Assembly (NCBI GenBank): GCA_037447335.1
Contig: JBBIGV010000011.1
Location: 8,191-72,190 of the forward strand
DNA length: 64,000 nucleotides
Source of the DNA: Ignavibacteria bacterium
GTDB lineage: Bacteria > Bacteroidota > Ignavibacteria > Ignavibacteriales > Ignavibacteriaceae
Direction of reading: 5' to 3'
Both the position numbers and the translations under genes were made by a program. The notes beneath the pieces are model-generated. The model was not told the origin of the DNA. It made no database searches and saw only the letters and a program-made list of their open reading frames with translations. Positions 32,747 to 54,833 of the stretch are shown in pieces; within the stretch, counting starts at the first letter, position 1; each line of letters starts with the position of its first letter.

Positions 32747-34366
32747 ATGAATAAAATTCCCAAACCATCACATATTCCTTTCCTGATTAACACGGCAATT
32801 TTTTTGCTGGCTGTTTATCTGTTACTTAACCAATCGCTGGCATCTAACGATGGAAAGCTGACTTACAACCTTGACGATGCTTACATCCATCTTGCAATCG
32901 CTAAGAATTCAGTTGAGCATTCGGTGTGGGGTGTAACCTCAGATGGATTTACATCTTCATCATCTTCTCTGTTGTGGACATCTGTGCTTATAGTTCTGTA
33001 CAAGGTTACCGGCGAACTGGAAAGCCTGCCGTTCATACTTAATGTTTTAATTTCTCTGCTGTTATTGTACGTTGTTTACAAAGAACTGCGCAAACATTTC
33101 AACAACGTCTTTTTATTAACGATTTTGCTGGCGGCGATACAAGCTGCGATACTTATTCCTTTTCATGTTTTCTCCGGGATGGAGCATATTCTTCACATGC
33201 TGCTGACACTTTTGTTTATAAGATTACTGCTCAATTTTATAAGCAATGAATCAACTAAATCAGAATTAGCTTATCTTCTTGTTATTACATTCTTACTCAC
33301 TTCTGTAAGATTTGAGTCTGTCTTTCTGATCTTTGCTTCAATTATTCCTCTGGCAAAGGAAAAAAGATATGCAGTATTATCTACTCTGATATTGTTCGCA
33401 TCGCTGCCTGTTATTATTTACGGATACTATTCACTTAATAACGGGTGGTATTTTCTGCCGAACTCCGTTTTGCTTAAGGGCAATCAACCTGAAGTATCAT
33501 TTTTATCTTTAATTGTTTTTGTACTTAAGCCGATCGGCGGATTGTTTAAGTACAGCATTCATTTACTGGCAATAATTGCATTACTGCTGTTGGTGTACCG
33601 GATGCAAAAATTATCAAAGGAACAAAAATATTTTTTATTTCTGTTCGGCGGTACACTTTTATTGCACCTGCTGTTTGCCAGAGTCTCGGGCACATTTAAT
33701 ATTGAGGGAGGAATAAGGTATGATTCATACCTGATTCTGACGGGGCTGTTGTTAGCAGTTATTCTTACATCAGGAAAGATAAAGGAGATATTTAGACTAA
33801 AAAATTTCCGCAGCAGCCCGGTAAGCCAAAACATTTTAAACATTGCACTCATATTCATCTTCGCTTTCCCGCTTCTTTACCGTGGAGTTGTAATAACCAA
33901 AAAAACTCCTGTTGCAACAACAAATATTTACCAGCAGCAGATACAAATGGGAAAATTTTTTTCAATATATTTCGACGGGCAAAATGTCGGTGTTAATGAT
34001 ATCGGGGCTGTATCATTAATAAAAGGAAGCAATGTGGTTGATCTATGGGGACTCTCCGATATAGAAGCAGCTATTGCAAGAGTTGAAAAAAGATATACAT
34101 CCGGATTTTTAGTTGATTTGATTCATAAAAAAGATGTTAAGGCGCTTGCAATTTATGACCTCTGGTTTGAAAAGTATCCCTTATTAAATAGTTCACTGGT
34201 TAAAGCAGGCGAATGGGAAATAAAGAACAACATAATCTGCGGCGACAGCATCGTGTCTTTTTATGCTCCTGATTCAATATCAGCATTAGAATTGTCCGAA
34301 AAACTAACTCAATATTCTGACCAGTTACCGGGATCAGTCATTGTCAGAAATTATTTTCAAAAATAA
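32747..34366 (+). CDS. large polytopic membrane protein, possibly a GT-C-fold glycosyltransferase
   Basis: 539 aa with about 12 TM helices, an acidic first-loop motif NLDDAYIH and a soluble C-terminal domain. The family assignment is tentative. Confidence 0.4.
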   Translation: MNKIPKPSHIPFLINTAIFLLAVYLLLNQSLASNDGKLTYNLDDAYIHLAIAKNSVEHSVWGVTSDGFTSSSSSLLWTSVLIVLYKVTGELESLPFILNVLISLLLLYVVYKELRKHFNNVFLLTILLAAIQAAILIPFHVFSGMEHILHMLLTLLFIRLLLNFISNESTKSELAYLLVITFLLTSVRFESVFLIFASIIPLAKEKRYAVLSTLILFASLPVIIYGYYSLNNGWYFLPNSVLLKGNQPEVSFLSLIVFVLKPIGGLFKYSIHLLAIIALLLLVYRMQKLSKEQKYFLFLFGGTLLLHLLFARVSGTFNIEGGIRYDSYLILTGLLLAVILTSGKIKEIFRLKNFRSSPVSQNILNIALIFIFAFPLLYRGVVITKKTPVATTNIYQQQIQMGKFFSIYFDGQNVGVNDIGAVSLIKGSNVVDLWGLSDIEAAIARVEKRYTSGFLVDLIHKKDVKALAIYDLWFEKYPLLNSSLVKAGEWEIKNNIICGDSIVSFYAPDSISALELSEKLTQYSDQLPGSVIVRNYFQK

Positions 34367-34422: not shown

Positions 34423-35577
34423 CTACTCGTAGTAAGAAATAATAACCGGTCTTTCCGAAGCTGGTCCAACACCCCCAACCTTCCAGAAAGGAGCAGTTAA
34501 AACTTCTGAAGCTGGTCTGTAATAAATCTCTGTTCTTCCTTTAAATTCAAATATGCCTTTTGCAGTCATACTTCCATAAAGTTTGGATTTGCTGCTAAAT
34601 GAAATTTTTCCATATGAAAAAAGCTGTGCTCTGATAGTAGTATTGTTTCCACATTCCACATTTCCTTTTGCATAAATACCAAGATTGCTGGAATTCGGGT
34701 CTTCTGAAAGAATTGAAATATTTGCCGTTACATTAACATTACCTTTAACAATGTAAACACCATAACCCATAAAAGTACCGCTTATATTAAGATTGCCGCA
34801 GACATAAATGATTTTTGGATTATCTTTTGTTCCAAGTAATGTTGTACCGCTTACATTGAGATTTCCTTTATGAACTTCTGCTGCAATATCAATGTAATCG
34901 TCCGGTTCAAATGCGGGGATTTCAATTTCGTCACTCTGATAATGATTCGGACTTCCATCCGGATTAACATTAGGCACTATTTGAGTATTTAATCTGTGCC
35001 CCGGATTAGAGCTTGCAACGCCCTTATATGTAAGAAATCCTCTTATAAGGTTATTGCCATTCATTGTAAAATTTTTATTGGTATGAACATTTGAATTCCA
35101 GTTTGAGTTGTTATCGTCCCTGATATTCACATTCTGAATTGATATGTTTTCATCGGAAGCCATTGCATACTTCATAAACGGCGGTAAATTCCCCTTGGAT
35201 GCATTTGGTGATGGCAGCTCAACTACTGTTCTTATAATGTGTTCCTGGCTGCCGGATTTACCAACGGCAGTTATCAAGCGTCCGTGCTTCAATCCTTCAT
35301 CAGGACCATTAAAGTATTTGCTGGTTGTTTTCTGAATGGTTATTTCAACATCACCTTGATGAAGCTGGACTGATTTTGTTCCGGTCCACGATGTATCCAT
35401 TGAAAGGTCTTTGATTGCAATCTCTATTCCTGCTGAGGCATTATTCTTTGCATGCACATTCTCATATTCTGAAACAGAATTAGAGAACATGGAAGTATTA
35501 CTCCTGTTCATATTCAAACTCATAACCGAGAATATTAAGCTTGCACCTAAAACAACTATCAGCAGCATTTTGCCCAT
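34423..35577 (-). CDS. pilin-like N-terminus + beta-helix-like repeat protein, paralogue A (PilX-like minor pilin or tip protein candidate)
   Basis: The start is taken at MGKMLLIVVLGASLIF. Repeated GN(V/L)N(V/I)xG units are present. The C-terminus is YYRPA..L..PFWK.GG...RPVI.SYYE. I judged it by eye to be a clear paralogue of 35813..36970. Confidence 0.6.
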   Translation of the reverse strand: MGKMLLIVVLGASLIFSVMSLNMNRSNTSMFSNSVSEYENVHAKNNASAGIEIAIKDLSMDTSWTGTKSVQLHQGDVEITIQKTTSKYFNGPDEGLKHGRLITAVGKSGSQEHIIRTVVELPSPNASKGNLPPFMKYAMASDENISIQNVNIRDDNNSNWNSNVHTNKNFTMNGNNLIRGFLTYKGVASSNPGHRLNTQIVPNVNPDGSPNHYQSDEIEIPAFEPDDYIDIAAEVHKGNLNVSGTTLLGTKDNPKIIYVCGNLNISGTFMGYGVYIVKGNVNVTANISILSEDPNSSNLGIYAKGNVECGNNTTIRAQLFSYGKISFSSKSKLYGSMTAKGIFEFKGRTEIYYRPASEVLTAPFWKVGGVGPASERPVIISYYE

Positions 35578-35617
35578 TTTACAAACCAATAATTAAGTTA
35601 AACATAACTCAATTATG

Positions 35618-35632
35618 CAACTACCGTGCAAA
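35618..35632 (-). promoter_or_regulatory. shared 15-nt promoter/operator motif TTTGCACGGTAGTTG upstream of paralogue A
   Basis: On the minus strand it lies 40 nt upstream of the ATG at 35577. It is 14/15 identical to 38111..38125. It resembles the sigma54 consensus TGGCACG-N4-TTGC except that -24 GG is TG. Confidence 0.4.
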
Positions 35633-35751
35633 AGAAAAAGGCTAAAAACGGAGCAAAATCAAGCCTTTTTGCCCCAATTGATGTATCGAAATGATAAGGA
35701 GGATAATAATGAATCAGGAGAATAATTTGATATTTTGAAGTGAATAATACA

Positions 35752-35788
35752 GCGTAAAAATAAAAAAGGTGAGCACCGGGCTCACCTT
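35752..35788 (-). terminator. rho-independent terminator of the upstream minor-pilin-like operon
   Basis: 9-bp stem AAGGTGAGC / GCTCACCTT (35766..35788) with a minus-strand T-run. Confidence 0.7.
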
Positions 35789-35812
35789 CGTTAAAAATAA
35801 TCGGGTTGAAAT

Positions 35813-36970
35813 TTATTCGTAGTATGAAAGTATAACCGGTCGTGTGGCAATTGTCCCGCCACCGCCGGTTTTCCAGAAAGGAGATGACAATTCATCTGCT
35901 GCCGGTCTGTAATAAACTCCAACATTGCCATTAAAGTTAACTTTACCCTGTGCTGCCATGCTTCCGTGGACGCTGACATTACCATTAAGATTAATATCCT
36001 CAGAAGACAACAATTGGGCTTTTACGGTTACATTACCATTCATATTTATATTACCCTTTGAGTAAAGCCCAAGGTTACTGGATGTAGGGTCAATACCCAG
36101 AATATTAACATTACCGTTAATTGTTGTTGTTCCCTTAACAATAAATACTCCATAACCTTTAACATTACCATTAAGCGTCAGATTTCCACCTACATAAATA
36201 ATGCTCGGGTTATCTTTGGTGCCGAGTGTAAGATTACCGCTTACACTGTAATTACCCATATGTTTATGAGTTGCCAAACCGATATAATCCTCGGGGTTGA
36301 AATCAGGTATTTCAATCTCAGGCGATTTAAAGTGAACGGGATCCCCGTTAAGGTTTACATTAGGTTTAATATTGGTGTTTAATCTGTGCCCCGGAGTTGA
36401 GCTTGCTGTTCCTGTATATGATAAAAATCCCTTAATTGTTGGATTACCCGTCATTCTGAAATTTTTATTTGTATGAACATTGGCATTCCATAACGGGTTA
36501 AAGTCGTCTCTTACCTGCACATTGCCTGTCAGAGCAAAATCTTCTCCCGAAGCAATTGCATAAGTTAAAAACGGCGGCACTTTCCCAGGCGGTCCGGAAG
36601 AAGTTGGAAGCTGTATAACGGCTCTTATTATATGAGTCTGATCTCCAACCAAGCCGGTTGAGGTAACAAGTCTTGCGCCTATCAATCCTTCATTCGGTCC
36701 GTTGAAATACCTGCTTTGAGTGTTCTGAACAGTGATGGAAACGTTACCCTGATAAAGAGTCCGTTTGTTCACACCAGCCCACGCAGTATCGACAGAAAGA
36801 TTCTTTATTGCCAGCTCAATGCCCGCTGCAGCATTGTTTTTTGCGTGAACGCTTTCGTATTCCTGTACCGAATTTGTGACCATTTCGGTATTGCTGGTGT
36901 TCATATTCAGGCTTATCAGCGAGAATATTACGCCTGCGCTCACAACCACAATTAATAACATTTTGCCCAT
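35813..36970 (-). CDS. pilin-like N-terminus + beta-helix-like repeat protein, paralogue B
   Basis: MGKMLLIVVVSAGVIFSLISL followed by NGNV-type repeats (NLNGNVSVHG, NFNGNVGVYY). It has the same conserved C-terminus as paralogue A. Confidence 0.6.
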   Translation of the reverse strand: MGKMLLIVVVSAGVIFSLISLNMNTSNTEMVTNSVQEYESVHAKNNAAAGIELAIKNLSVDTAWAGVNKRTLYQGNVSITVQNTQSRYFNGPNEGLIGARLVTSTGLVGDQTHIIRAVIQLPTSSGPPGKVPPFLTYAIASGEDFALTGNVQVRDDFNPLWNANVHTNKNFRMTGNPTIKGFLSYTGTASSTPGHRLNTNIKPNVNLNGDPVHFKSPEIEIPDFNPEDYIGLATHKHMGNYSVSGNLTLGTKDNPSIIYVGGNLTLNGNVKGYGVFIVKGTTTINGNVNILGIDPTSSNLGLYSKGNINMNGNVTVKAQLLSSEDINLNGNVSVHGSMAAQGKVNFNGNVGVYYRPAADELSSPFWKTGGGGTIATRPVILSYYE

Positions 36971-37042
36971 TTTATTTAACCTTTATGTTAGTTTTTATTA
37001 AATCCATTTCGTTTCTCATCTTAGACTGAATCAGGAAGCTAA

Positions 37043-37570
37043 TTATAAGTTCCTCGGGAAAAATCTTCTCTTCCATGAGCCGGATACTTCGCCCTTTGAA
37101 TCTTTGAAGGAATCTTCTTTAAAAATTAATTCAATAGATATACTTTTGACTTTACTTGCTGCCTGGGTAACAATGCCTTTATCATCGTAACCTTCAACAA
37201 TAAATTTCTGAACCGGTGTAGTCCATTCGGTGACCGGGCTGCTGGTTCTTCTTTTTAACTCTACGATGCCCTGCCCTTTTGCAACTGAATAATAAACTGT
37301 GTCAACAACACCGTTATTATCCAGGTCGGCGAGAAAGGTTATAGAGGTTCCGGAAATATTTAATATTTTATCGCTGGCAGAAACCCTGTAGCCAAGTTTC
37401 TGAAAATCATGTTCGATTATTGCTCCAATCTCAGTTGCTGATCTTTGGGCAATTTCACTAAGCTTGGTTTCCTGGGATTTGGCGGAGAAATGAAAGGTTA
37501 ACCCTATTAAGGATAATAGTACCATTCCGCCAATTATATAAGATCCGGCTATATCTAATATGTGATGCAT
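37043..37570 (-). CDS. minor pilin-like protein (N-terminal hydrophobic helix, no canonical leader)
   Basis: MHHILDIAGSYIIGGMVLLSLIGLTF followed by a soluble beta-rich domain, in operon context. Confidence 0.45.
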   Translation of the reverse strand: MHHILDIAGSYIIGGMVLLSLIGLTFHFSAKSQETKLSEIAQRSATEIGAIIEHDFQKLGYRVSASDKILNISGTSITFLADLDNNGVVDTVYYSVAKGQGIVELKRRTSSPVTEWTTPVQKFIVEGYDDKGIVTQAASKVKSISIELIFKEDSFKDSKGEVSGSWKRRFFPRNL

Positions 37571-37576
37571 AATTAT

Positions 37577-38062
37577 TTAATAACTTTTGTATGAATAAAT
37601 TCTTACTGTGTCTGTCATAAACGGATGTGTTACTGTAACCTGGATTCTTTTAAGTCTTGAACGAACCAATAATGTGTCTATTCCATTATGTTCATTCACG
37701 TAATGAACCCTTGCTAAAAGATCAAAATTCCCACCGCGTAAGGTAGAATCTATCCTTGGGTGGAAATTGTAATCGTCAACATCATTAAACGTTGCAAATG
37801 TTTCACCAGGTTCGGGGCCCATAAGGTTTGGTGGTGTCAGTATATTAATATCAGATAGGATCGGGTTGCCAACCACAAAATGATCAAAGGCTTTTTCGGT
37901 GATTTCATTGATCAGGTTCTGCCCGACCGATGTTGCCATAACAATATATTCGGCGGAGAGCTTCTGCTCTTCGGAGCTTATAATTGTGCGGTTGACGTTT
38001 AACGCCAGAAGGGAAAAGAGAAAGATGCCGCCTATTACTAAGTATGTTTGTACGTTACTCAT
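37577..38062 (-). CDS. minor pilin-like protein (N-terminal hydrophobic helix, no canonical leader)
   Basis: The start is taken at MSNVQTYLVIGGIFLFSLLALNV. The longer TTG-initiated ORF reaching 38113 overlaps the promoter motif. Confidence 0.45.
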   Translation of the reverse strand: MSNVQTYLVIGGIFLFSLLALNVNRTIISSEEQKLSAEYIVMATSVGQNLINEITEKAFDHFVVGNPILSDINILTPPNLMGPEPGETFATFNDVDDYNFHPRIDSTLRGGNFDLLARVHYVNEHNGIDTLLVRSRLKRIQVTVTHPFMTDTVRIYSYKSY

Positions 38063-38110
38063 CTGAGGGCTTAAGATTGAGTTTATGATTATTATTTGAT
38101 AATACAAACA

Positions 38111-38125
38111 CAACTATCGTGCAAA
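38111..38125 (-). promoter_or_regulatory. shared 15-nt promoter/operator motif TTTGCACGATAGTTG upstream of the minor-pilin-like operon
   Basis: On the minus strand it lies 48 nt upstream of the ATG at 38062. It is 14/15 identical to 35618..35632. Confidence 0.4.
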
Positions 38126-38235
38126 TCTTTTTTATGCTTTTTCGAATGATTTCAAGCAGTACCTGTATTTAATGTGTATCAGCATGAAAAAAAGTTGCAT
38201 CTCAATCTCAGATTTACTCATAAAAAATTCCATCT

Positions 38236-38247
38236 ATTACCGGTAAT
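38236..38247. promoter_or_regulatory. perfect 12-bp palindrome ATTACCGGTAAT in the divergent pilin control region
   Basis: It is self-complementary. Related sites are TAACCGGTAAT at 38301..38311 and AATTACCGGT at 39724..39733. Confidence 0.3.
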
Positions 38248-38567
38248 AAATTGACTTATTATTAATTCGATTTAAATCTATTAGGATATTATATAATTAT
38301 TAACCGGTAATATTTACATTTTTAGATCCTGTAAAATCCATTTTTCTTAGAATTTTAGCTTCATCACTTTTATAAATTGTGCATTCGATAATTAACAATG
38401 TGTCCACAGAAATTAATACTGGAATTTAATGAGTGAGTTGTTTGATTGCCTTCTTAAAAACGGGTAAAAATTTATATTATTAGTAATAATTACACGTAAT
38501 AACTTCCATAGTTACCGATGCAAGTCCAACCCATCAAATAACTTATTGTAAAGAAATAAGTTACAGA

Positions 38568-38584
38568 TTGGCACAGAATTTAAT
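38568..38584 (+). promoter_or_regulatory. weak sigma54-like promoter candidate upstream of the first pilin gene
   Basis: In TTGGCAC-AGAAT-TTAAT the -24 element is perfect and the -12 element lacks GC. It lies about 47 nt upstream of the TTG at 38631. Confidence 0.25.
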
Positions 38585-38630
38585 GAGTTATATGCGAGTT
38601 CGAGTAATTACAAAATGAAAGAAAAGGAAA

Positions 38631-39011
38631 TTGGGACAGCAACAGTTATTACTAATAGTCCTTGGAATAATAGTCGTAGGAGTAGCCGTTGCATTTGCAA
38701 TTGCAATGTTCCGGCAGGGAGCTATTGACTCCAAGAGAGACCTGGTAATGAATGAAAATGCTAACCTTGCAAACATGGCAATTCAATATTATAGAAAGCC
38801 TCAGATGCTTGGAGGAGGAGGAAATACTTTTTTGGGCTGGGCTATTCCCTCAGAACTTATAATAACAGCCAGCGGAAATTACTGGGCAGAAGTTTACCAG
38901 GATAGCGTCGTTATAATAGGTACAGGCAATGACGTTGTTAATGGCACAGATTCTGTAAGAGTAAGAACAACAGTTACAGCAAATACACATTTTTCTTTAA
39001 TAGTTCATTAA
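38631..39011 (+). CDS. major pilin candidate P1 (leaderless, non-canonical)
   Basis: TTG start preceded by AAGGAAA. N-terminus MGQQQLLLIVLGIIVVGVAVAFAIAMF followed by an amphipathic helix. It shares a YY(R/K)KP..GGGGNTF.GW.IP motif with P2. Confidence 0.6.
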   Translation: MGQQQLLLIVLGIIVVGVAVAFAIAMFRQGAIDSKRDLVMNENANLANMAIQYYRKPQMLGGGGNTFLGWAIPSELIITASGNYWAEVYQDSVVIIGTGNDVVNGTDSVRVRTTVTANTHFSLIVH

Positions 39012-39070
39012 ACGTTCTTTTAACTTATTAACCTAACTAACATTATCAACAATCGTAAGGAGATCTAATA

Positions 39071-39436
39071 ATGGGTCAACAACAACTTCTCTTAATCGTG
39101 CTTGGCGTTATCATAGTAGGTATCGCTGTTGTAGTCGGTATCAACCTGTTCAATGCGAGCGCGGAAGAATCAGCAAAAGATTCGATTGTATCTGAGGCAA
39201 CAAACCTTGGCGCAATGGCTCAGCAATATTACAAGAAGCCAACCTCCATGGGCGGCGGTGGAAATACTTTCACAGGATGGACAATCCCGACTAATCTTGA
39301 CTCCACTGCTAATGGACAATATGCACCAACTGTTGCTCCTCAAGAGGTTACTATAGTAGGTACACCACATAATTATACCTGGACAGTAACTACAACCGTT
39401 ACACCAAACACAATATCATCTCAGGGTAGCTGGTAA
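39071..39436 (+). CDS. major pilin candidate P2 (leaderless, non-canonical)
   Basis: ATG with an AAGGAG Shine-Dalgarno sequence. An in-frame TAA 15 nt upstream excludes a longer leader. N-terminus MGQQQLLLIVLGVIIVGIAVVVGINLF, with a Thr-rich C-terminus. Confidence 0.65.
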   Translation: MGQQQLLLIVLGVIIVGIAVVVGINLFNASAEESAKDSIVSEATNLGAMAQQYYKKPTSMGGGGNTFTGWTIPTNLDSTANGQYAPTVAPQEVTIVGTPHNYTWTVTTTVTPNTISSQGSW

Positions 39437-39466
39437 TAAAATATTATCACTTCTTATATGATTACT

Positions 39467-39498
39467 AAGGCTGCTAAAAAGGCAGCCTTTCTTTTTTT
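39467..39498 (+). terminator. strong rho-independent terminator after the pilin genes
   Basis: AAGGCTGC-TAAAAAG-GCAGCCTT followed by TCTTTTTTT. Confidence 0.8.
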
Positions 39499-39547
39499 AA
39501 ATCTGTACCGCGTTGATATGAGTTATTATAAATTTCAATCCCTTGTA

Positions 39548-39665
39548 GAGGCTGACCAAAATGCAGCACAGATTACTAATCTGTGCTACGATGACTTTGA
39601 ATTTAATCTGAAATCAGACATATAAATTCAGAGTTGTTTGCAAAATTTACTTTTTGGTCAGCCTC
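39548..39665 (+). repeat. palindromic intergenic repeat element, copy 2
   Basis: Same orientation and near-identical sequence to 28815..28954. Termini are GAGGCTGACCAAAA / TTTTGGTCAGCCTC. Confidence 0.8.
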
Positions 39666-39830
39666 CTTTATTTAAAAATGCAGAAGATGTATTATCAATT
39701 ATCAATAAGTAATTTTTCTTCAGAATTACCGGTCAACTTATCCCAAAACCACCAAACTTGTTTCTTTTTTACCGATTTTTTACAGGCATGAAAATTGATT
39801 TATTCAGATAGAATTTTTAAAGGTATTATA

Positions 39831-41288
39831 ATGATTGAATTAAGATTTACAGCAGAAAAAATGAATGGGCAGGTTATAACCGGTACCCTTTCAGCAAAGT
39901 CTTTTTCTGAAGGCAAAAGGAAAATATCCAGGCTCGCCGAAAAGAACCAGTTGAAGATCAAAATTATCGAAAAGAAATCCACCTTTATTTATAAGGTAAG
40001 AAAGGGTAATGAAAAATCCCAGACCGGTGAGCAGAAAGCATTTACAAAACACGAAGTGCAGGAAGCCCTTGCAAGAATGGGTTATACGGTTCTTTCCATA
40101 AATAAAAAACTGCTGAACATCCGCAGAACACCACCCTTATCCGAAATCGTTACATTTGTGAAAATCAGCGCTGAGTTATTAGATCAAAAGCTCGCTTACA
40201 GCGAAATACTTACTTTATTAATTAACGATACAGAAAACAGAACTCTGAAAGAAACCCTCAGGGAAATAAACAGCGAGTTAAAAAAAGGCGCTGATAGTGA
40301 AGCTACTTTTCTCAAATACCAATCTGTATTCGGGAAGTTTACCGCATATATGCTCGGTCTTGCTTCCAAGAGCGGTAACATGGCGGAAATCTACAAAGCT
40401 ACGGCTAAGTTTCTTGAGCGGCGCCAGGAGTTCAAGAAAAATCTCCGTAGTGCTCTTATTACTCCTGCTGTAACAATCTTTGTTCTATTTCTTGCAGTTA
40501 TGTTTTATGTTGCTTACATCTTCCCTGAAACTGCGCTGCTGTTCATCAAATTCGGAATTGAAGTACCCCCGATGACAGCATTTACACTTTTGATAAGCGA
40601 TTTTATAGTTGATAACTTTTTGCTTGTTACATTAGCAGCCATTGCCCCGCCGATTGCAATCTGGCAATACAGCAAAACTAAAAAGGGGAAGCTGGTGGTT
40701 GATAAATACCTGCTAAACATGCCGGTTATCGGTTCGCTGATTCACAAAACTGTAATTGAAGTTTACTGCCGCGTATTCTATACTCTTTACAGCGGTTCTG
40801 CAGAAAGTATAGAGCCCATAAAAATTGCCGCCGAAGCCGCCGGTAATAAGTATTTTGAAGACAGGATCAAAAATGTCGCTATTCCATTAATGATCAAAAA
40901 AGGTGTAGGAATTACTGATGCATTCGTAGCCAGTGGAGTTTTTACCGATACTGCAATCTCCAGGCTTCACTCTGGAGAAGAGACGGGAACCATTAAAAAC
41001 ACATCCTTACAGTTGGCTAATTATTACGAAAGCGAGACGGTTTATAAGCTTAAAAACCTGATAGAGTTGATTCAGGTTATTATTGCTATGATTATCATGG
41101 TAGTAATGATTGCATTAACGCTTGTTTCTGCTGAAACAGCTACAGTAAGACCAAAGAACCCGGGACTTACCGGTTCACTGCACGATCAAAATACTACTAT
41201 TTATGCAGACAGGAATAATATTTGTTTCAACCAGCCGGAATTGACAGGTTTTTTTGCCGGGGATCAATCCGTGCTTAACAAATGCTGA
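39831..41288 (+). CDS. pilC: PilC/GspF-family platform protein
   Basis: Two T2SS-F type repeats with 3-4 TM helices. The start is taken at MIELRFTAEKMNGQVITG. There is a tail of roughly 50 aa after the last TM helix. Confidence 0.8.
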   Translation: MIELRFTAEKMNGQVITGTLSAKSFSEGKRKISRLAEKNQLKIKIIEKKSTFIYKVRKGNEKSQTGEQKAFTKHEVQEALARMGYTVLSINKKLLNIRRTPPLSEIVTFVKISAELLDQKLAYSEILTLLINDTENRTLKETLREINSELKKGADSEATFLKYQSVFGKFTAYMLGLASKSGNMAEIYKATAKFLERRQEFKKNLRSALITPAVTIFVLFLAVMFYVAYIFPETALLFIKFGIEVPPMTAFTLLISDFIVDNFLLVTLAAIAPPIAIWQYSKTKKGKLVVDKYLLNMPVIGSLIHKTVIEVYCRVFYTLYSGSAESIEPIKIAAEAAGNKYFEDRIKNVAIPLMIKKGVGITDAFVASGVFTDTAISRLHSGEETGTIKNTSLQLANYYESETVYKLKNLIELIQVIIAMIIMVVMIALTLVSAETATVRPKNPGLTGSLHDQNTTIYADRNNICFNQPELTGFFAGDQSVLNKC

Positions 41289-41321: not shown

Positions 41322-43115
41322 GTGATGATAGATACCAATCTTGAAATGACTGACAAAATCGGTTATCTGCTTTTCAAAAAAGGGATAATTGATGCACAGA
41401 TGCTTGAAAAGGCGCTCACTGCTAAGTCAAACGATAGAAGTAAAATAAAACGTAACCTTGCACAAATTCTTGTTCAGGATTTTGGTTTTGACCACGATAT
41501 GATTTTCAGAGAAGTGGCAATACTTTATGCATTCCGTGAACTCGATACCGCAGTTGAAGATATACCTCCGCAGCGTCTGGAAAGCATTAAGCAGCGGGTA
41601 AACAATGCCGGCGAAGTTCTGAAAAATCAGATGCTCGAGCATAAAGTTATTCCCTTTATGTACGATGAAAGAATTAAGGATAAACTTATACTTGCAGCAA
41701 TTGATCCGACCGACAGGAATATCCCTAAAATAGCGTTTGGTCTTAATGCAAAGAAGTATGAAGTAATCTATATTAAAAAGCGCGACTATGAAAAACTGAT
41801 CAATACAATTCTTCCGCCCGAGAACGTATATCTGAAAATGATGGAAGAAGCCGAGCCCGAATTTCAAATTGATAAAGATGAAACCGGGCTGGATGAAGAA
41901 GCGCTTGATGCAGAAATAAACCGCAGTGCATTAATTAACCTTGTTGAAGGCGCCCTGGTTGAAGGTGTAAGAAGAGGCGCCAGCGATATTCACTTCGTTC
42001 CTATATCGAATAATAAAACTGAAATTCTTTTCAGGGTTGATGGTGGTCTGCTGCTGTGGCACATCCAGGAAAGCACTTTGCCCGAAGCTGTTGTTGCGGT
42101 TGTTAAAGATCGATCAAAAGGCATGGACCGGTTCGAAAGAGAAAGAGCACAGGATGGTTTTATTCAAAGAGAAATTGACGGCATCGTAATTCGTTTCAGG
42201 GTTTCTGTCCTTCCTATGGTAGGTACAGAACTTAAAAATAAATTCGAAAGCGTTGTAATAAGAATTCTTGACGACAGGAAAGTAATAAGAGACCTCGATA
42301 AGCTCGGCTTAACCGGTTATGCAAGAGATGTTTTTGTTAAAGCAATAAATCAACCGCAGGGAATGGTAATCTTAACAGGACCGACGGGAAGCGGAAAGAG
42401 CACAACTCTTGTTGCAGCATTATACCAGGTAGTAGATCCATCCGTTAACGTTCTTACTGTTGAAGACCCCGTTGAGTATGTTATTGAAGGCGCAAGGCAG
42501 CTTAAGATCGGTTACAAAATGAATTTTGAGCAGGCAATCCGATCCATTCTTCGTCATGACCCTGACATCGTGCTGGTTGGTGAGATGAGAGATAAAGAAA
42601 CTGCTGAAACTGCAATAAAGCTTGCAAACACCGGTCACTTAACATTCTCAACTCTTCACACTAATGACGCACCGAGCGCAGTTGCGCGTTTATACAAAAT
42701 GGGTATTGAACCTTTCCTTATTGCTTACGCCATTAATTTGATTGTTGCGCAAAGACTTATCAGAAAACTTTGCCCGGATTGTAAAAAGAAGGTTGCAAAC
42801 TTTGACGAAGAATTCATGAATTCACTGGGACTGAACATTGCTGAGTGGAGAAACTATATCATTTACGAACCCAGAGGCTGCGACAAATGTAATAAAACTG
42901 GTTACAAAGGTCGGCTTGCAATTCACGAAGCTCTTTACTTTACCAAAGAGATAAGACAAATTATCGTTCGCTCCGGCGTTGAAGTTGATGAAGAAAAAAT
43001 AAGAATTCAGGCAAAGAAAGACGGATCTCTGAATTTGCGTGAAGCCGGTTTCGAAAAAGTAAAACTCGGCTTAACATCTCTCGAAGAAGTTATTGCCGGA
43101 ACAACTGATGAATAG
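41322..43115 (+). CDS. pilB: PilB/GspE-family assembly ATPase
   Basis: GspE N-domain, Walker A GPTGSGKSTT, Walker B DPDIVLVGEMRD, His box GHLTFSTLHTND and a tetra-Cys motif CPDC..CDKC. Confidence 0.9.
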   Translation: MMIDTNLEMTDKIGYLLFKKGIIDAQMLEKALTAKSNDRSKIKRNLAQILVQDFGFDHDMIFREVAILYAFRELDTAVEDIPPQRLESIKQRVNNAGEVLKNQMLEHKVIPFMYDERIKDKLILAAIDPTDRNIPKIAFGLNAKKYEVIYIKKRDYEKLINTILPPENVYLKMMEEAEPEFQIDKDETGLDEEALDAEINRSALINLVEGALVEGVRRGASDIHFVPISNNKTEILFRVDGGLLLWHIQESTLPEAVVAVVKDRSKGMDRFERERAQDGFIQREIDGIVIRFRVSVLPMVGTELKNKFESVVIRILDDRKVIRDLDKLGLTGYARDVFVKAINQPQGMVILTGPTGSGKSTTLVAALYQVVDPSVNVLTVEDPVEYVIEGARQLKIGYKMNFEQAIRSILRHDPDIVLVGEMRDKETAETAIKLANTGHLTFSTLHTNDAPSAVARLYKMGIEPFLIAYAINLIVAQRLIRKLCPDCKKKVANFDEEFMNSLGLNIAEWRNYIIYEPRGCDKCNKTGYKGRLAIHEALYFTKEIRQIIVRSGVEVDEEKIRIQAKKDGSLNLREAGFEKVKLGLTSLEEVIAGTTDE

Positions 43116-43268: not shown

Positions 43269-44552
43269 TTGTCTTTTAGAAATTTACATTATAATTTAAT
43301 AACTATCATTGGAAGTCGTATTGTGGCAATAACTGCAGGAAAAAATATACTGGTAAATTTTTCAGAAAACATTCCGGCATCCTTAACCGGTCCGGACAGA
43401 GCTGCCTATATACTCGAAAATATAGACCGGCTTGAGGTTGATGAAAAAGTTGCTCTTCGTAATCTCTTTAACAAATTGCTAACCAGCATGATTGAAAGAG
43501 ATGCCTCCGATATTGAAATAGGCGGGCACGGAAACGAAGGCTATATATGGATGAGAGTGCACGGAAAGAAACAGCGTATTTCCGATTTACCCCAATTCTC
43601 TCTTGATGAAACTGCTATCCTCATAATCAATCTGCTTAATGCAAATCAGAGAAAGTATCTTTCGCTTACCCGAAACCTTGATTTCAGCCATACATTTTTT
43701 TATGAGAGGAAGAAAACAAACATTCGTTTCAGAGCGGATGCTTACTTTGACCTCGATACTCTCGCATTGAATATGCGCGCCATCAATGCAACCATCAGAC
43801 CTTTTTCTTCACTTGGTTTTCATCCTGTTGCGGCAAAGATGATGAGTCATACCTATATCAAGTTCGGGCTGTCTCTTGTAACAGGAATTACCGGTTCCGG
43901 TAAATCTACAACTCTGGATTCAATAATAGATGAACATAATAAGATAGACCCCTGCCATATTGTTATAATAGCTTCGCCTGTGGAATATGTTCATAAATCG
44001 AATGTCTCGATAGTAAGGCATAGAGAAGTTGGACGGGATGTGCTTTCATTCAAAGATGGTGTTACGCAATCATTACGACAGGACCCCGACATAATTGTTA
44101 TTGGTGAAATGAGAGACCCCGATACTATCCTTGCTGCTCTTGAAGTTACGGATACCGGGCACAAAGTTTTTTCTACTTTACACACATCATCTGCATCAGA
44201 ATCAATTGACAGAATAATCGCAGAAGTTCATCCGAATGAGCAGGAACGTGTAAGGAACAGGCTTGCAGATGTTTTAATATCTGTAGTATCTCAAAAGCTT
44301 GTCCCAAGCCTTGATGGTAAGCAGGTGCTCGCTAAAGAAGTGCTGATCGTTACACCAAGTGTTAAAGCAGCAATAAAAAATAATAACGTAAGCGAAATTT
44401 ATATGATGATAAACCAGGGTGCCAACCAGGGTATGATAACAATGGAGCAGGACCTTAAGCGGCTTTATCTTGAAAAAAAGATTTCGCTTGAAAATGCAAT
44501 AGCATATGCAAATAATAAAACAAGAATTCAGCAATTACTGGCGGCAGCATAA
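43269..44552 (+). CDS. pilT: PilT-family retraction-type ATPase with an N-terminal extension
   Basis: Walker A GITGSGKSTT, DPDIIVIGEMRD and GHKVFSTLHTSS. The start is uncertain (TTG at 43269 or GTG at 43323). Confidence 0.8.
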   Translation: MSFRNLHYNLITIIGSRIVAITAGKNILVNFSENIPASLTGPDRAAYILENIDRLEVDEKVALRNLFNKLLTSMIERDASDIEIGGHGNEGYIWMRVHGKKQRISDLPQFSLDETAILIINLLNANQRKYLSLTRNLDFSHTFFYERKKTNIRFRADAYFDLDTLALNMRAINATIRPFSSLGFHPVAAKMMSHTYIKFGLSLVTGITGSGKSTTLDSIIDEHNKIDPCHIVIIASPVEYVHKSNVSIVRHREVGRDVLSFKDGVTQSLRQDPDIIVIGEMRDPDTILAALEVTDTGHKVFSTLHTSSASESIDRIIAEVHPNEQERVRNRLADVLISVVSQKLVPSLDGKQVLAKEVLIVTPSVKAAIKNNNVSEIYMMINQGANQGMITMEQDLKRLYLEKKISLENAIAYANNKTRIQQLLAAA

Positions 44553-46094
44553 ATGAAACCTGTAGTATCGGTATATTGTGAAGGCAATGATACAAAGATT
44601 GCCGTTTTTAGTGCAGAGAACGGTAGGATTAAAGTACTAAGAAGCGCATCTTTTGATGTGATGCAATCGGCAATGAGACTCGATGACGGTATAGCCGACC
44701 TTGCCCTTGAAGGTACCGACCTTGATCTTGAACAGATGAAAAAGCAGGGTGTCGAGTCTGATGGTTCGGTTAATGTTTCTGCCATCAGCTCGATAAATGA
44801 ATCACTGCGCGGAACAAATCTCAGTAAGTGTGATTTTATTACTGCACTCACTGAACCTTCTGTTTATTATCATGTCTTTGAAGGTTCTAAGCAGGCTCGC
44901 TCTTCCAAACTTAACGCAGATATTGCTCAGGAAATTCTCAATACAAAAGGAATCGGTGTTGATAAAGACACACTTGGCTATGTTGAATTGTCTGATAAGT
45001 CTTTGTTTGCAGCATTCATTGCGGGCGATGTAAATTGCTTTAAGCTTATAAATGCGCTGGCTAACTTCAATAACAAGCGTAATTATAAGATCACATCGGT
45101 TAAAAGTTGTGAAATATCACTTGCTTATTATGTAGCAAAAAGAAAGAAATTCTTTCCTGATGATTACTCGCTGATTGTCTATATAGGCAAAGAATACAGC
45201 AAGTTGATTTTCCTGCATGGCAGAAAATTAAAGCACATTGGCGCTACAATTGACATCGGTACACTAAATCTCCACACTTATGATGTTTACTTCTCCAAGA
45301 TACTTTTGGAAATGGAGAATGGTGGAATAAGTTCTCTTGATAATATTATCGTTTGCGGTGAGGATGATTCAGAAAGCCTGATACTATCTTTCTACGGAAC
45401 TTTCCCTGAAGCAAATGTGTCAAGATTAGAGTTTGAAGACCTTGATCTTACCGGGTTAAAACCTGAAGAAAGAGAAATCTTTTCTGCATTCAGCGTGCCC
45501 ACTGCCATAGCTATTGAATATTTCGATGAACTTAAGCAGGAGTATAAAGGCATAAACCTCCTGCCAAAGTATGTAAAAGAAGATCAGAAATTTTTCCAGT
45601 TTGGCTGGCACGGCTATCTGATGCTGCCTATACTATTCCTTTCCGCTTTGTTTATCACACAACAGATATTAAATAACCAGAGCACGATCAAACAACTGGA
45701 TAAAGAAATTACCGAGCAGACCATCCTTGTTAAAGAAAATCAGCAAATACTTTCCCAGATTGCTGAACTGGAAGCTAAGATAAGCAGCTTCGACAGGACA
45801 CAGGCAATCCTTGATTCGGTCTCTGTCGGCGCTGGTATCTGGACAAAAGTGGTTACTCATATTGCAGAGTTTTTTGGCGCCAGGAAAAACATCTGGCTAA
45901 CAAAACTTTCGCAGGATGGAAGCAACGTGGTGCTAGAAGGTTATGTGCTATCTAAAAATGTTCTAACAGATTTTGCTTATTCTATAGATTCGGCAATTCT
46001 CAAAAGTGTTTTTTATGAGGCTCTCAGGGAGAAGGACACTTATAAGTTTATGATCATCTTTAACCTTTCACAATTTCCGGAAGCAGATAAATGA
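44553..46094 (+). CDS. PilM-like actin-fold protein fused to a PilN-like TM + coiled-coil module
   Basis: 513 aa. The N-terminal roughly 340 aa are PilM-like, followed by the TM helix GYLMLPILFLSALFITQQIL, a coiled coil and a C-terminal alpha/beta domain. Confidence 0.65.
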   Translation: MKPVVSVYCEGNDTKIAVFSAENGRIKVLRSASFDVMQSAMRLDDGIADLALEGTDLDLEQMKKQGVESDGSVNVSAISSINESLRGTNLSKCDFITALTEPSVYYHVFEGSKQARSSKLNADIAQEILNTKGIGVDKDTLGYVELSDKSLFAAFIAGDVNCFKLINALANFNNKRNYKITSVKSCEISLAYYVAKRKKFFPDDYSLIVYIGKEYSKLIFLHGRKLKHIGATIDIGTLNLHTYDVYFSKILLEMENGGISSLDNIIVCGEDDSESLILSFYGTFPEANVSRLEFEDLDLTGLKPEEREIFSAFSVPTAIAIEYFDELKQEYKGINLLPKYVKEDQKFFQFGWHGYLMLPILFLSALFITQQILNNQSTIKQLDKEITEQTILVKENQQILSQIAELEAKISSFDRTQAILDSVSVGAGIWTKVVTHIAEFFGARKNIWLTKLSQDGSNVVLEGYVLSKNVLTDFAYSIDSAILKSVFYEALREKDTYKFMIIFNLSQFPEADK

Positions 46095-46981
46095 ACAGGA
46101 AAATAATCAGTACGCTCGGACTTGTCGGTTTGCTCGTTATCATCCTGCTGCTTGGCGGATTATATATATTTCTCTTTCAAAGAGGTGACCTTGAAACGAA
46201 AAGAGAAAAATTAAAAGAGCTTAAAGCTTATGATTACGATACAGATCAGCTTTTAAATCAGCTTGAAACTCTTGAATTGCGGTCTGCCGTTCTGGATTCA
46301 ATACTTGCAGCAAGAAAGTTTAATATACCCTATGATATTTCATCAATTAAGTTCTATGATTTTCTTAATAACATAAGCCGAAGTTTTTCTTCAAGCACAC
46401 AGATAGATATTGAATACATGGAACAAAAAGCCGATAAAGAATTTCAGTTTTATGAATATAAAATCGGCGGCACAGGTCCATTCAGTGATTTGTACAAATT
46501 ACTGGTTGCTATCGAAAACAGTAAAGAGCTGAAAAAGATAAACTCGGCAATGATGAATAATTATGTCGGCACCGATGAAGACGGCTACCCACAGTTTATG
46601 GTAAGTTATGTGCTCAATGTAAAAACATACTTTGCTGATAATAACAGATTTACTACTGCGGATTTTGTTGAAAATGATTTATCGGCAAGACCTGTTTATG
46701 ATGCATTCTTTCCGCTTATACGAAACGAAATACCTCCAAACATAGATATGCTGCTTGACGTTCAAGGCGCAAGGCTGCTTGCTCTTATTCCGGAAGGCGC
46801 ATTTCTTTCCGACAGCCGGGGTAATACCTATCTGATCTGGGAAGGCGACCCGGTATATCTTGGATATCTGACAAAAATAGACTACGATCATAATATGGTC
46901 AGCTTTATTCTGAATAAAGGTGGAATTATTGAAAAAGTGGACCTTGAGCTGGCTCAGGAAGATAAAACAAAGAAGAAATAA
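46091..46981 (+). CDS. PilO-like protein fused to a PilP-like C-terminal domain
   Basis: TM helix and coiled coil, then a ferredoxin-like core (YEYKIGGTGPFSDLYKLLVAIE), then PilP-like FFPLI...LLALIPEGAFLSDSRGNTYLIWEGDPVYLGYLTKID. Confidence 0.55.
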   Translation: MNRKIISTLGLVGLLVIILLLGGLYIFLFQRGDLETKREKLKELKAYDYDTDQLLNQLETLELRSAVLDSILAARKFNIPYDISSIKFYDFLNNISRSFSSSTQIDIEYMEQKADKEFQFYEYKIGGTGPFSDLYKLLVAIENSKELKKINSAMMNNYVGTDEDGYPQFMVSYVLNVKTYFADNNRFTTADFVENDLSARPVYDAFFPLIRNEIPPNIDMLLDVQGARLLALIPEGAFLSDSRGNTYLIWEGDPVYLGYLTKIDYDHNMVSFILNKGGIIEKVDLELAQEDKTKKK

Positions 46982-46998: not shown

Positions 46999-48228
46999 AT
47001 GAAAAAGTTTTTTGTCTGTTTCGTTATTGTAATTTTTGCTGCCGGAAGTTTTTACCCGCAGCGTCACCTTGAAAAGCAGTTCAAGGGTTATACTAATCCC
47101 GAAGAGCTTGTTTCTTTATCGCCCGATATTTCGTTCAATCAGGCTGTTGAACTGCTTAGCAAAGTAAGCGTAAATATTACCGGCAAGAAAATAATTTCTA
47201 CTGTTGACCGGAGCGAACCTATCGGGATGGATATTCGCAATATGCCTTACGATAAGGTGCTGGTTATTTTGGTTCAATATGCAAATCTTCTTTTTGAAGA
47301 AAGAGAAGATGTGATTGTTATTAAAAGAAAGGGGGAAGAGAAAGAGAAAAGCCCGGAAACTTACGCGGCAGTTGATAGTCGTGAAGTAAAAATATCAGCA
47401 GTATTTTTTGAAATGGATGTAAATGCTTCCAAAGAAAGAGGTGTTAACTGGAAATTTTTGCTTTCAAAAAAGGGACTTGATATTGGCAGCGAAATGCGCT
47501 CTTTTACCGAACAACAGCAAACGGGCGGGCAGCAGCAAACACAGCAAACACCGGAGTTTAAAGTTGGCGGCTCTTCAACTTTTGATGCCGGCGGTTTCTT
47601 TGGTGAAGCTACTGCAATGTTCAAATTTTTTGAAGAAGAAAATCTCGGCGAAATCATCGCAAGCCCAAACATTATCGTTCGTGACAGAAACCAGGGAAGA
47701 ATTCAGGTGGGTTCCGATTTCTCTGTAAAGCAGCGTGATTTTGCAGGAAATATTGTTGAAAGTTTCTTCCCTACGGGCACAATAATTGAAGTTACTCCAT
47801 ATGTCTATAACGAAGAAGGCATAAATTATATGCTTCTTGATATTAAAGTTGAAAGAAGCTCGTTCGTTCAGGGTGAAGTTACAACCGAAGTCAGGAAAAC
47901 AACTGCTAATACGCAGGTTATTATGTTGGATGAAGAAGAAACTGTTATTGGTGGTTTATTTATAAATGAAGAAATAAAAATTAGAACCGGAATTCCGTTT
48001 CTGAAAGACCTGCCCTGGTGGGTATTTGGCATAAGATACCTTACTGGCAGCGACCAAACAGTTCTGAGAAAAAAAGAACTGGTTATCTTAATAAAGGCTG
48101 AACTTGTGCCAACTTTGAAAGAAAGAATTGCAGGTACTAAATCAAGTTCACCAATAAGAGATGAAATTTTAAGGAACAGAGATAGAATCCGGTATTATCA
48201 GTTCAATCAATCAACCGATGGAAATTAA
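46999..48228 (+). CDS. pilQ: short secretin (PilQ/GspD family)
   Basis: Signal peptide and an N0/STN-like domain. Secretin core IIASPNIIVRDRNQGRIQVG...GGLF...IPFLKDLPWWVFGIRYL. Q-rich insert QQQTGGQQQTQQT. Confidence 0.8.
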   Translation: MKKFFVCFVIVIFAAGSFYPQRHLEKQFKGYTNPEELVSLSPDISFNQAVELLSKVSVNITGKKIISTVDRSEPIGMDIRNMPYDKVLVILVQYANLLFEEREDVIVIKRKGEEKEKSPETYAAVDSREVKISAVFFEMDVNASKERGVNWKFLLSKKGLDIGSEMRSFTEQQQTGGQQQTQQTPEFKVGGSSTFDAGGFFGEATAMFKFFEEENLGEIIASPNIIVRDRNQGRIQVGSDFSVKQRDFAGNIVESFFPTGTIIEVTPYVYNEEGINYMLLDIKVERSSFVQGEVTTEVRKTTANTQVIMLDEEETVIGGLFINEEIKIRTGIPFLKDLPWWVFGIRYLTGSDQTVLRKKELVILIKAELVPTLKERIAGTKSSSPIRDEILRNRDRIRYYQFNQSTDGN

Positions 48229-48234
48229 AATAAG

Positions 48235-48600
48235 ATGGAATCAATTCTAATAGTAGATGACGACTTAAATCTCTGTCTCGCACTTAAGGATGAACTGATT
48301 GAAGTTGGTTACGATGTTAATTTCGTAAACGACGGCGATCAGGCGCTGAACTACCTTGAGAGCAGCACGCCGGATCTTATTTTACTCGACCTGAAAATGC
48401 CAAACAAAGATGGTTTTGAAGTTCTTAAAGAACTCAATCAAAAAAACATAAAAATTAAAGTGATCGTTTTAACAGCTTATGCCGATGTAAAAAGTGCGAT
48501 AGATTCGGCAAAAATGGGGGCAAATGATTTTATTGCCAAGCCCTACGATTTTGATGAATTGTTAATTACGATAAGAAAGGTGCTCCAAAGGGATCAATAA
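48235..48600 (+). CDS. single-domain CheY-like response regulator
   Basis: 121 aa with DD..D(LILLDLKMP)..T..K(AKPYD). Confidence 0.85.
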   Translation: MESILIVDDDLNLCLALKDELIEVGYDVNFVNDGDQALNYLESSTPDLILLDLKMPNKDGFEVLKELNQKNIKIKVIVLTAYADVKSAIDSAKMGANDFIAKPYDFDELLITIRKVLQRDQ

Positions 48601-48602
48601 GT

Positions 48603-52169: not shown

Positions 52170-52174
52170 TTATT

Positions 52175-52843
52175 ATGAAAAAAATTCTTGTTATAGACGA
52201 TCTTCCCGAAAACGTTTTTCTTCTTCAGGACAGGCTGGAACATGAAGGATACGAGGTGATAACAGCTTATGAAGGCAAAACGGGTATAAACAAAGCTATT
52301 AACGAACAACCGGATTTGATCCTTTTAGATATAATGATGCCGGAAATTACAGGCATTGAAGTTTGTAAAACTTTGGTCAAACACCCGGCAACCGAGAACA
52401 TTCCAATAATTCTTGTTACCGCAAAATCAGGGGCGGAAGATACAAGAGAAGGACTGGAAGCCGGTGCATTCGATTATATTAAAAAGCCATTCCACCGGAT
52501 TGAATTGCTTGCGCGTGTTCAATCTGCGTTAAAACTTTCTGAGGCGCATAAAATGATTCTTGAAGCCGAGAAGCGAAGTACTTATGCCGCGACAATCGTA
52601 ACAACCAACCATACTATCAAGCAGCCGCTTACATTGCTAAGTCTTTCTTCTGCAGCAATAAAAAGAGAGTTGAACAAAGAAGAGATTTCCAAAGAAGCTT
52701 TGCTGAAGAGGCTTGCCTACATTGACACTGCCATTAAAGAAATTAATGATGTGCTTAACCAGCTTAATACGATTAAAAAGCCGGTGTTCGGGAACTATGT
52801 TAAAGATATTCAGATGATTGATGTTGGCAGTCAGGCAGAATAA
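52175..52843 (+). CDS. response regulator with a DHp-like C-terminal domain lacking an ATPase domain
   Basis: REC domain (LILLDIMMPEITG..KKPF) followed by a helical segment with the H-box-like motif TNHTIKQPLTLL. Confidence 0.7.
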   Translation: MKKILVIDDLPENVFLLQDRLEHEGYEVITAYEGKTGINKAINEQPDLILLDIMMPEITGIEVCKTLVKHPATENIPIILVTAKSGAEDTREGLEAGAFDYIKKPFHRIELLARVQSALKLSEAHKMILEAEKRSTYAATIVTTNHTIKQPLTLLSLSSAAIKRELNKEEISKEALLKRLAYIDTAIKEINDVLNQLNTIKKPVFGNYVKDIQMIDVGSQAE

Positions 52844-54829: not shown

Positions 54830-54833
54830 TATT

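Follow-up and report, generated by a model that had tools for sequence, protein, structure and literature searches.

A class III leader peptide, a prepilin peptidase of the A24 family and a glutamate at position 5 (Glu5) are treated as defining, near-universal features of type IV filaments. In archaea, the EppA-dependent pilins are made with a genuine leader that carries positive charge and are cut by an A24 peptidase of their own, and GspK and PilX are pilin-like subunits that function without Glu5 and retain a cleavable leader. In a review, the peptidase is treated as essentially universal for type IV pilins, and the accompanying survey lists species with prepilins together with the peptidase, the ATPase and the platform protein in every listed phylum except Nanoarchaeota (PMC4471445). 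For the MSH loci, which carry no peptidase, the accepted view is that the enzyme of another system of that genome is used (Denise et al. 2019, PMC6668835), and the genome paper of Melioribacter roseus found neither pilA nor pilD (PMC3534657). Here we describe a locus of an Ignavibacteria bacterium (assembly GCA_037447335.1, contig JBBIGV010000011.1) in which two small tandem genes, P1 and P2, are most likely those for the pilus subunits so far missing from Ignavibacteria, and specify proteins with no leader. The whole stretch of DNA that was analysed, 64,000 nucleotides at positions 8,191 to 72,190 of the contig, is hereafter called the window.

P1 (38631-39011, forward strand) starts with TTG and encodes a leaderless pilin-like protein of 126 amino acids, and P2 (39071-39436, forward strand) starts with ATG and encodes one of 121 amino acids. 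They are true paralogues, which have in common the N-terminus (M/L)GQQQLLLIVLG, a hydrophobic helix and the motif QYY(R/K)KP..GGGGNTF.GW.IP, with dissimilar C-termini; the combined Ser and Thr content of the tail is 21% in P1 and 33% in P2. The start sites of both genes are fixed because in-frame stops lie close upstream, a TGA at 38616-38618 for P1 and a TAA at 39056-39058 for P2, each 15 nt before the start codon, and a Shine-Dalgarno sequence AAGGAG can be read at 39057-39062, 8 nt upstream of the P2 ATG. Downstream of P2 an intrinsic terminator (39467-39498, forward strand), with a 9-bp stem at 39467-39489 that includes five G-C pairs and is followed by a T-run, is predicted to end the pilin transcript ahead of pilC. 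An earlier note on this DNA, written from the letters alone, had described the two paralogues with their lengths, common parts and divergent C-termini, the TGA that leaves P1 its TTG start, the TAA and Shine-Dalgarno sequence of P2 and the terminator, and every one of these statements was borne out.

The same note had claimed that there is no room for a leader, and this was found to hold family-wide when one genome per species was scanned, which gave 79 related loci (counts out of 80 loci below are these plus the window). All 150 genes with the GQQQ motif in the 79 loci and the window have the start codon directly before the Gly codon (ATG in 113, TTG in 26 and GTG in 11), nearly all have an in-frame stop 1-13 codons upstream, and an alternative upstream start, present in only four of the 150, is not conserved. 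The P1/P2 family consequently has nothing like the short, positively charged, A24-cleaved leader ending in Gly(-1) of class III. A frameshifted leader was considered for P1, where an ATG at 38615 overlaps the in-frame TGA (38615-38633, ATGAAAGAAAAGGAAATTG) and the removal of one A would give MKKRKLG/QQQ, to all appearance a canonical class III leader, and was rejected since the arrangement is not kept upstream of 26 other P1 orthologues. The Lys codons upstream of P1 are more simply a purine-rich ribosome-binding region, and their look of a leader is probably a coincidence.

The Glu5 of type IV pilins is likewise replaced throughout the family. In an alignment of 123 diverse members the sole invariant columns are Gly2, Gln5 (counted from Met1) and Gly62, and the N-terminal variants MGSQQ, MGTQQ, MGHQQ, MGSHQ, MGQKQ, MGQSQ and MGKQQ differ at positions 3 and 4, with Q, S, T, H or K at position 3, and have Gln5 in common. 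Because Gln5 is common to this family and to a co-clustered minor-pilin family starting with MNTGQ, in which Glu5 occurs rarely, the sequences point to Met1 as residue 1 of the canonical mature pilin and to Gln5 as the counterpart of Glu5. Given the variable position 3 and the invariant Gln5, the resemblance to archaeal signals pointed out in the earlier note, with Gln at +1 after a Gly, does not give the best register. What P1 and P2 have in common with the EppA-dependent pilins of Methanococcus is a Gly-Gln junction just before the hydrophobic helix and no Glu5. However, the would-be leader of P1, P2 and the minor pilin is only M or MNT and uncharged, the residue after Gly is unconserved whereas position 5 is invariant, and the machinery of the Ignavibacteria is bacterial and type IVa-like, with PilT and a secretin; the (K/R)-rich leader, conserved Gln(+1) and EppA-type peptidase that mark EppA substrates were not found in these loci. 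It is plausible that Met1 of P1 and P2, with their M-G start, is removed by methionine aminopeptidase, although this enzyme would not act on the MNTGQ minor pilins and the removal would break the common Gln5 register.

The minor-pilin candidates lie upstream of P1 in a block of four minus-strand open reading frames (34423-38113), each with a hydrophobic helix a few residues after the start codon. The candidate nearest to P1 (37577-38062, minus strand, 161 amino acids from an internal Met) has the N-terminus MSNVQ followed by the hydrophobic helix, with no leader. A search with this single sequence gave only three matches, and a 14-sequence profile was needed to reach 687; among 120 listed, 99 start with MNTGQ, 114 have Gln5 and two have Glu5, and the Joint Genome Institute (JGI) names several family members 'MSHA pilin protein MshD'. 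The second candidate (37043-37570, minus strand, 175 amino acids) starts with MHHILDIAGSYIIGG, again with no leader, and has Asp at position 6; its homologues have Asp at position 6 or 8 within an LD(I/V)(I/L)G motif. The large candidate (35813-36970, minus strand, 385 amino acids, N-terminus MGKMLLIVVV) has a beta-helix-like C-terminal part with a weak match to DUF7305 and is accompanied by a tandem paralogue of about 384 amino acids (34423-35577, minus strand) whose likely start is an internal ATG giving MGKMLLIVVLG; homologues start with M(x)G(K/R) and then the helix, and have no polar residue at position 5. By their sequences these three families are also leaderless, and by size they match a GspI/J/K-like set. 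Type IVa systems likewise have a set of minor pilins in which one large subunit carries a non-polar position 5, in the manner of PilX and GspK, and the 385-aa protein is also similar in size to GspK and PilX. Unlike in the systems that contain those proteins, here the major subunit has no Glu5 either and a cleavable leader is absent. The counterparts in Calditrichia start with MGTGQ, MTAMID and MIGKG, the counterpart of the 385-aa protein having a weak DUF4900 match. In related genomes the block mostly does not lie between the aspartyl-tRNA synthetase gene (AspRS) and P1, and in Calditrichia and in the locus L073 it is found between pilB and pilT.

Downstream of P2 the forward strand carries the components of a type IVa machinery recognised by Pfam and NCBIfam, namely PilB-type and PilT-type ATPases, a PilC platform and a secretin. 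The PilC-like platform protein (39795-41288) matches Pfam T2SSF at 2.8e-29 and the NCBIfam PilC/GspF models at 1e-42 to 1e-36, below their cut-offs. The PilB-like assembly ATPase (41322-43115; Pfam T2SSE 1.1e-101) has as its best model TIGR02538, type IV-A PilB (1.3e-126, 423 bits, below the 676-bit cut-off), and the PilT-like retraction ATPase (43269-44552) matches TIGR01420 pilT_fam at 4.3e-97 (325 bits, above the 319-bit cut-off). They are followed by a 513-aa protein (44553-46094; syntenic in 53 of 79 loci) weakly assigned as a PilM/PilN-like alignment protein (PilN 0.0047; the PilM-like Amuc_1101 0.0018), by a 296-aa protein (46091-46981; syntenic in 51 of 79) that has an N-terminal transmembrane helix, a coiled coil and no family match and is PilO/PilP-like by position only, and by a short secretin of 409 amino acids (46999-48228; Pfam Secretin 5e-24; TIGR02515 PilQ 2.5e-23, below cut-off). 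Searches with the window proteins (tblastn) recovered the gene order AspRS, P1, P2, PilC, PilB, PilT, PilMN, 296-aa protein, secretin and response regulator in about 50-60 of the 79 loci. The Calditrichia homologue, which starts with MGQQQLLLIVLG, has the same machine genes after the pilin gene, with three minor-pilin candidates between PilB and PilT. The test proposed in the earlier note, a search of genomes of the FCB group (Fibrobacteres, Chlorobi and Bacteroidetes) for homologues that neighbour PilB, PilC and PilQ, thereby came out positive for Ignavibacteriota, in these roughly 50-60 of 79 loci, and for Calditrichia; the family itself was not FCB-wide.

Type II secretion systems lack PilT, and their pseudopilins come with GspC, GspL and GspM partners and no retraction ATPase. 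It is very unlikely, on this evidence, that P1 and P2 are pseudopilins of a type II secretion-like endopilus exporting proteins via the short secretin. The PilT-family ATPase in the operon scores above its NCBIfam cut-off, Pfam and NCBIfam detected no GspC, GspL or GspM homologue among the window proteins, and the variable C-terminal face of the subunits argues for exposure to the environment, as against a secretin of only 409 amino acids, a PilB-like ATPase that also scores well against GspE (2.8e-114) and the Bacteroidetes 'T2SS', which clusters with type IVa pili and has a very divergent major pilin (PMC6668835).

The pilin family is large and taxonomically confined. P2 homologues form 5,217 clusters at 90% identity (E<=1e-3), all of about 120-130 amino acids, 'hypothetical' and with no Pfam domain, and a profile search of 1.84 billion representatives returned 2,089 P2-family clusters at 50% identity; Pfam and NCBIfam assign no family to P1 or P2, and JGI calls one P2-family member 'Tfp pilus assembly protein PilE'. 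Where the homologues carry source names, these are mostly Ignavibacterium, Melioribacteraceae and other Ignavibacteria, and one cluster comes from Calditrichia. The 79 loci are all from Ignavibacteriota or from metagenome-assembled genomes labelled Bacteroidota, bar one 5-kb metagenomic contig binned as Acidobacteriota (L074, JBLMYS010000402.1); this contig has the same P1-P2-PilC arrangement and is probably a mis-binned Ignavibacteriota contig. The family is thus found in Ignavibacteriota and Calditrichia and not in the FCB group generally.

Within the family the N-terminal 70 residues of P2 are nearly invariant. Among the genes adjoining pilC the mean pairwise identity is 72% over residues 1-70 versus 42% over the rest, the tail has 30% Ser and Thr and only 8% charged residues, and 52 of 75 of these pilin-like proteins have no Cys. 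The tandem arrays comprise one pilin gene in 19 loci, two in 54, three in six and four in one. P1-type proteins are a separate orthologue group with the signature LFR..AID.KRD, found upstream of P2 in 57 of the 79 loci; they start with TTG or GTG in 19 of 27 copies, and P2-type genes start with ATG in 105 of 123. Since P2 is highly conserved and has an ATG, a strong Shine-Dalgarno sequence and a terminator, and P1-type genes mostly begin with TTG or GTG, we infer that P2 is probably the major pilus subunit and P1 probably an accessory or low-abundance pilin. Both had been put forward in the earlier note as tandem major-pilin candidates; as pilin candidates they are upheld by gene context, although probably not both are major.

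An AlphaFold2 model of P2 from a 32-sequence alignment (predicted local distance difference test score, pLDDT, 92.2; 94.7 for the head alone) consists of a continuous helix at residues 2-55, the GGGG loop and four beta-strands, and the 54-residue helix of the model resembles pilin alpha-1. The locus may thus be compared with type IVa pilins (PilA, PilE) in several respects: an operon with PilB, PilC, PilT, PilM/N/O-like proteins and a secretin, a predicted 'lollipop' with a long N-terminal helix on a four-stranded sheet, a conserved helix with a variable exposed C-terminus, and a sigma-54-like promoter motif upstream. Unlike type IVa pilins, P1 and P2 have no leader or Gly(-1)/Phe(+1) site, Gln in place of Glu5, no C-terminal disulfide loop and an invariant GGGG motif in the loop after alpha-1; unlike in type IVa systems, no prepilin peptidase was found near the loci, and sequence and Foldseek searches gave no significant pilin match. 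The pilin identity of P1 and P2 rests on gene context and predicted architecture, from which we consider it very probable that they are pilus subunits. With moderate confidence we further read P2 as the major and P1 as the accessory subunit of a type IVa-like pilus equipped with PilT, whose pilins have no class III leader, no processing by a prepilin peptidase and Gln5 in place of Glu5.

Several observations weigh against this reading, some of them bearing on the processing of the subunits and others on their identity as pilins. As to processing, Gly2 is invariant in the major family, and Gly4 stands directly before Gln5 in 115 of 118 members of the minor (MNTGQ) family. These are what would be expected if the proteins were type IV pilins and processing had been retained. 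A peptidase whose gene lies elsewhere, or which has diverged beyond recognition, would then cut behind the conserved Gly and remove a very short leader, MG from P1 and P2 and MNTG from the minor pilin, the N-terminal Gln then being able to cyclise to pyroglutamate, as in EppA-dependent archaeal pilins. In the large minor pilin, moreover, positions 2-4 contain G-(K/R), part of the 175-aa family has an N-terminus that looks like the six residues of the other members with 'MG' put in front, and the pilins of Methanococcus have Gln at +1. We nevertheless regard such cleavage as unlikely. It is the would-be +1 residue (position 3) that varies between Q, S, T, H and K, with Gln5 invariant; in about half of the 175-aa family the helix is not preceded by any Gly (MHHILD, MNESLD, MTAMID); and the would-be leaders of P1, P2 and the MNTGQ family have no positive charge.

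The peptidase itself was also looked for. A regular expression for canonical prepilin N-termini, which found four of four E. coli Gsp pseudopilins used as positive controls, gave no match in the window and the 79 loci (about 1.3 Mb), phmmer with E. coli GspO gave no match at E<=10 among the 2,275 open reading frames of this DNA, and Pfam detected no Peptidase_A24 in 30 open reading frames of the window or in representatives of all polytopic membrane proteins encoded in the loci. The absence of an A24 peptidase from the roughly 1.3 Mb around the loci and of pilD from M. roseus (PMC3534657) argues against cleavage, and the scope of this absence, which is one of the points on the other side of the balance, is the regions around the loci and one genome paper, not whole genomes. 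A locus with no prepilin peptidase is also a feature of MSH pili (PMC6668835), but the MSH pilins have canonical leaders whereas P1 and P2 have nothing to cleave. To the same side of the balance belongs the finding that an engineered leaderless PilA in Pseudomonas aeruginosa reaches the inner membrane and is not assembled (bioRxiv 10.1101/2022.05.13.491915), so that a leaderless route would need compensating changes. In the literature on leaderless or peptidase-independent type IV pilins and on pilins of Ignavibacteria, we found no description of the P1/P2 family.

As to pilin identity, Foldseek against the PDB, with the full and the head-only model, gave no significant pilin match, the best pilin being MBP-PilA of Acinetobacter baumannii (5ihj_A, TMq 0.43, E 2.8). 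An hhalign comparison with eight E. coli pilins and pseudopilins reached a probability of 3.4%, with an uninformative alignment register, and no Pfam or NCBIfam pilin model was at threshold for P1 or P2. Weak signals in favour of a pilin were seen below threshold: Pfam ComP_DUS matched 11 of 123 members, at best with E 3.6e-4, and PilE_C four of 32 (best E 0.016). Sequence and profile searches of the PDB otherwise gave chance-level matches such as KH domains and antibody light chains; apart from these light chains and one atlastin chain, the top profile matches were Geobacter PilA at E ~0.6. Furthermore, the pilin head domain, made up of the sheet, the GGGG loop and the helix from its middle to its C-terminal end, is shared with proteins of non-pilin architecture and is therefore not restricted to filaments. 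In some of these, two to five copies in tandem follow a Sec signal or a hydrophobic stretch at the N-terminus (P0122, P0153, P0168, P0226); in others the domain comes after a lipobox (P0233, P0171, P0222) or after a cytoplasmic zinc-ribbon accompanied by additional transmembrane helices (P0161, P0215, P0250, P0268). Neither the sequence searches nor the fold searches establish P1 and P2 as members of the canonical type IV pilins, and our claim is that these proteins work like pilins.

P1 and P2 could accordingly be bitopic inner-membrane proteins with a periplasmic domain that form no filament, for example an accessory of the machine with a structural or regulatory task, like PilN, PilO or GspM, or an anchored binding protein. 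The occurrence of the same head domain in lipoproteins, Sec-secreted multi-repeat proteins and zinc-ribbon plus transmembrane modules would fit such a role, as would the lack of a significant structural or sequence match to solved pilins, and the weak MacB_PCD matches in 23 of 123 members reflect this very layout of a transmembrane helix plus a periplasmic domain. We judge this improbable, since P1 and P2, unlike PilN, PilO and GspM, have no cytoplasmic segment at all before the helix, and the modelled continuous helix of 54 residues resembles pilin alpha-1. A hypervariable Ser/Thr-rich tail and a varying copy number are moreover typical of exposed subunits, a strong ribosome-binding site precedes P2 and a terminator of its own follows it, and three more leaderless pilin-like families, by size the GspI/J/K-like set, stand alongside. 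The machine would otherwise have no major pilin gene, there being no canonical prepilin motif nearby.

Upstream of P1, a sigma-54-like -24/-12 element, TGGCAC-N5-TTAAT (TGGCACAGAATTTAAT), is found on the forward strand at 38569-38584, 62 nt before the P1 start, with a degenerate -12 half. In 28 of the 80 loci the pattern TGGCA[CT]-N5-T[TA] precedes the first pilin gene by 44-65 nt, against about 0.027 matches expected per 150 nt, and in a 29th locus it is found farther out, at -119. From its sequence and position we take the element as a candidate promoter of a P1-P2 bicistron. An Rfam scan of 37900-39900 gave chance matches only and no riboswitch. On the minus strand at 39563-39589, between the P2 terminator and pilC, there is a 12-bp inverted repeat resembling a minus-strand terminator, within a spurious open reading frame of 55 codons.

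Downstream of the secretin, two-component genes are densely packed at 48235-56204. The first, directly behind the secretin, encodes a single-domain response regulator and keeps this position in 38 of 79 loci; the others specify a hybrid kinase of 1,188 amino acids with HAMP and GAF domains and three receivers, a receiver protein resembling PleD, another hybrid kinase and, at 54834-56204 on the minus strand, a sigma-54 activator. Two proteins of about 265 amino acids with C-terminal sorting domains of the type IX secretion system (Por_Secre_tail) are encoded on the forward strand at 58430-59227 and 62940-63734, from which it follows that the organism also has this system. On the other side of the minor-pilin block, a polytopic membrane protein of 539 amino acids that ends in a soluble domain (32747-34366, forward strand) belongs to no Pfam or NCBIfam family and has no homologue at the same position in the other loci; given the Thr-rich tails of the pilins, one might guess at a glycosyltransferase.

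If P1 and P2 are unprocessed pilins, as we favour, they would be translated directly in a mature-like form, with the hydrophobic alpha-1 helix right after the initiator Met, and from the leaderless state of both major and minor pilins the prepilin peptidase and N-methylase step appears to be dispensed with. The N-terminal helix would serve as a signal anchor, with the protein starting at the cytoplasmic face of the membrane and its head domain lying in the periplasm. PilB would then extract the subunits from the membrane at PilC, with polymerisation through the invariant N-terminal 70 residues and with the variable, Ser/Thr-rich, Cys-free C-terminal sheet turned outward, and the pilus would be built by the adjacent PilC, PilB, PilT, PilM/N/O-like alignment proteins and short secretin. 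It may be speculated that the neutral Gln5 pairs with an uncharged N-terminus, e.g. that of a retained formyl-Met. More broadly, and as a tentative proposal for which we would not yet claim the upper hand, Ignavibacteriota and Calditrichota may form retractile type IV pili whose assembly involves no prepilin peptidase at all, all pilins being made ready at Met1, possibly with the formyl group retained, and the neutral Gln5 replacing the salt bridge between Glu5 and the N-terminal amine that is universal elsewhere.

Were this true, it would be the first natural lineage of type IV filaments to break the rule of a class III leader and an A24 peptidase for every pilin, and would provide a natural experiment on what the leader, N-methylation and Glu5 are needed for. 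Pilin finders built on the G/FTLIE motif systematically miss this whole pilin class in environmental genomes, and Ignavibacteria are abundant in sediments, bioreactors and on anodes. More than 5,000 clusters of 'hypothetical proteins' would gain a function, and the missing pilA and pilD of Melioribacter would be explained.

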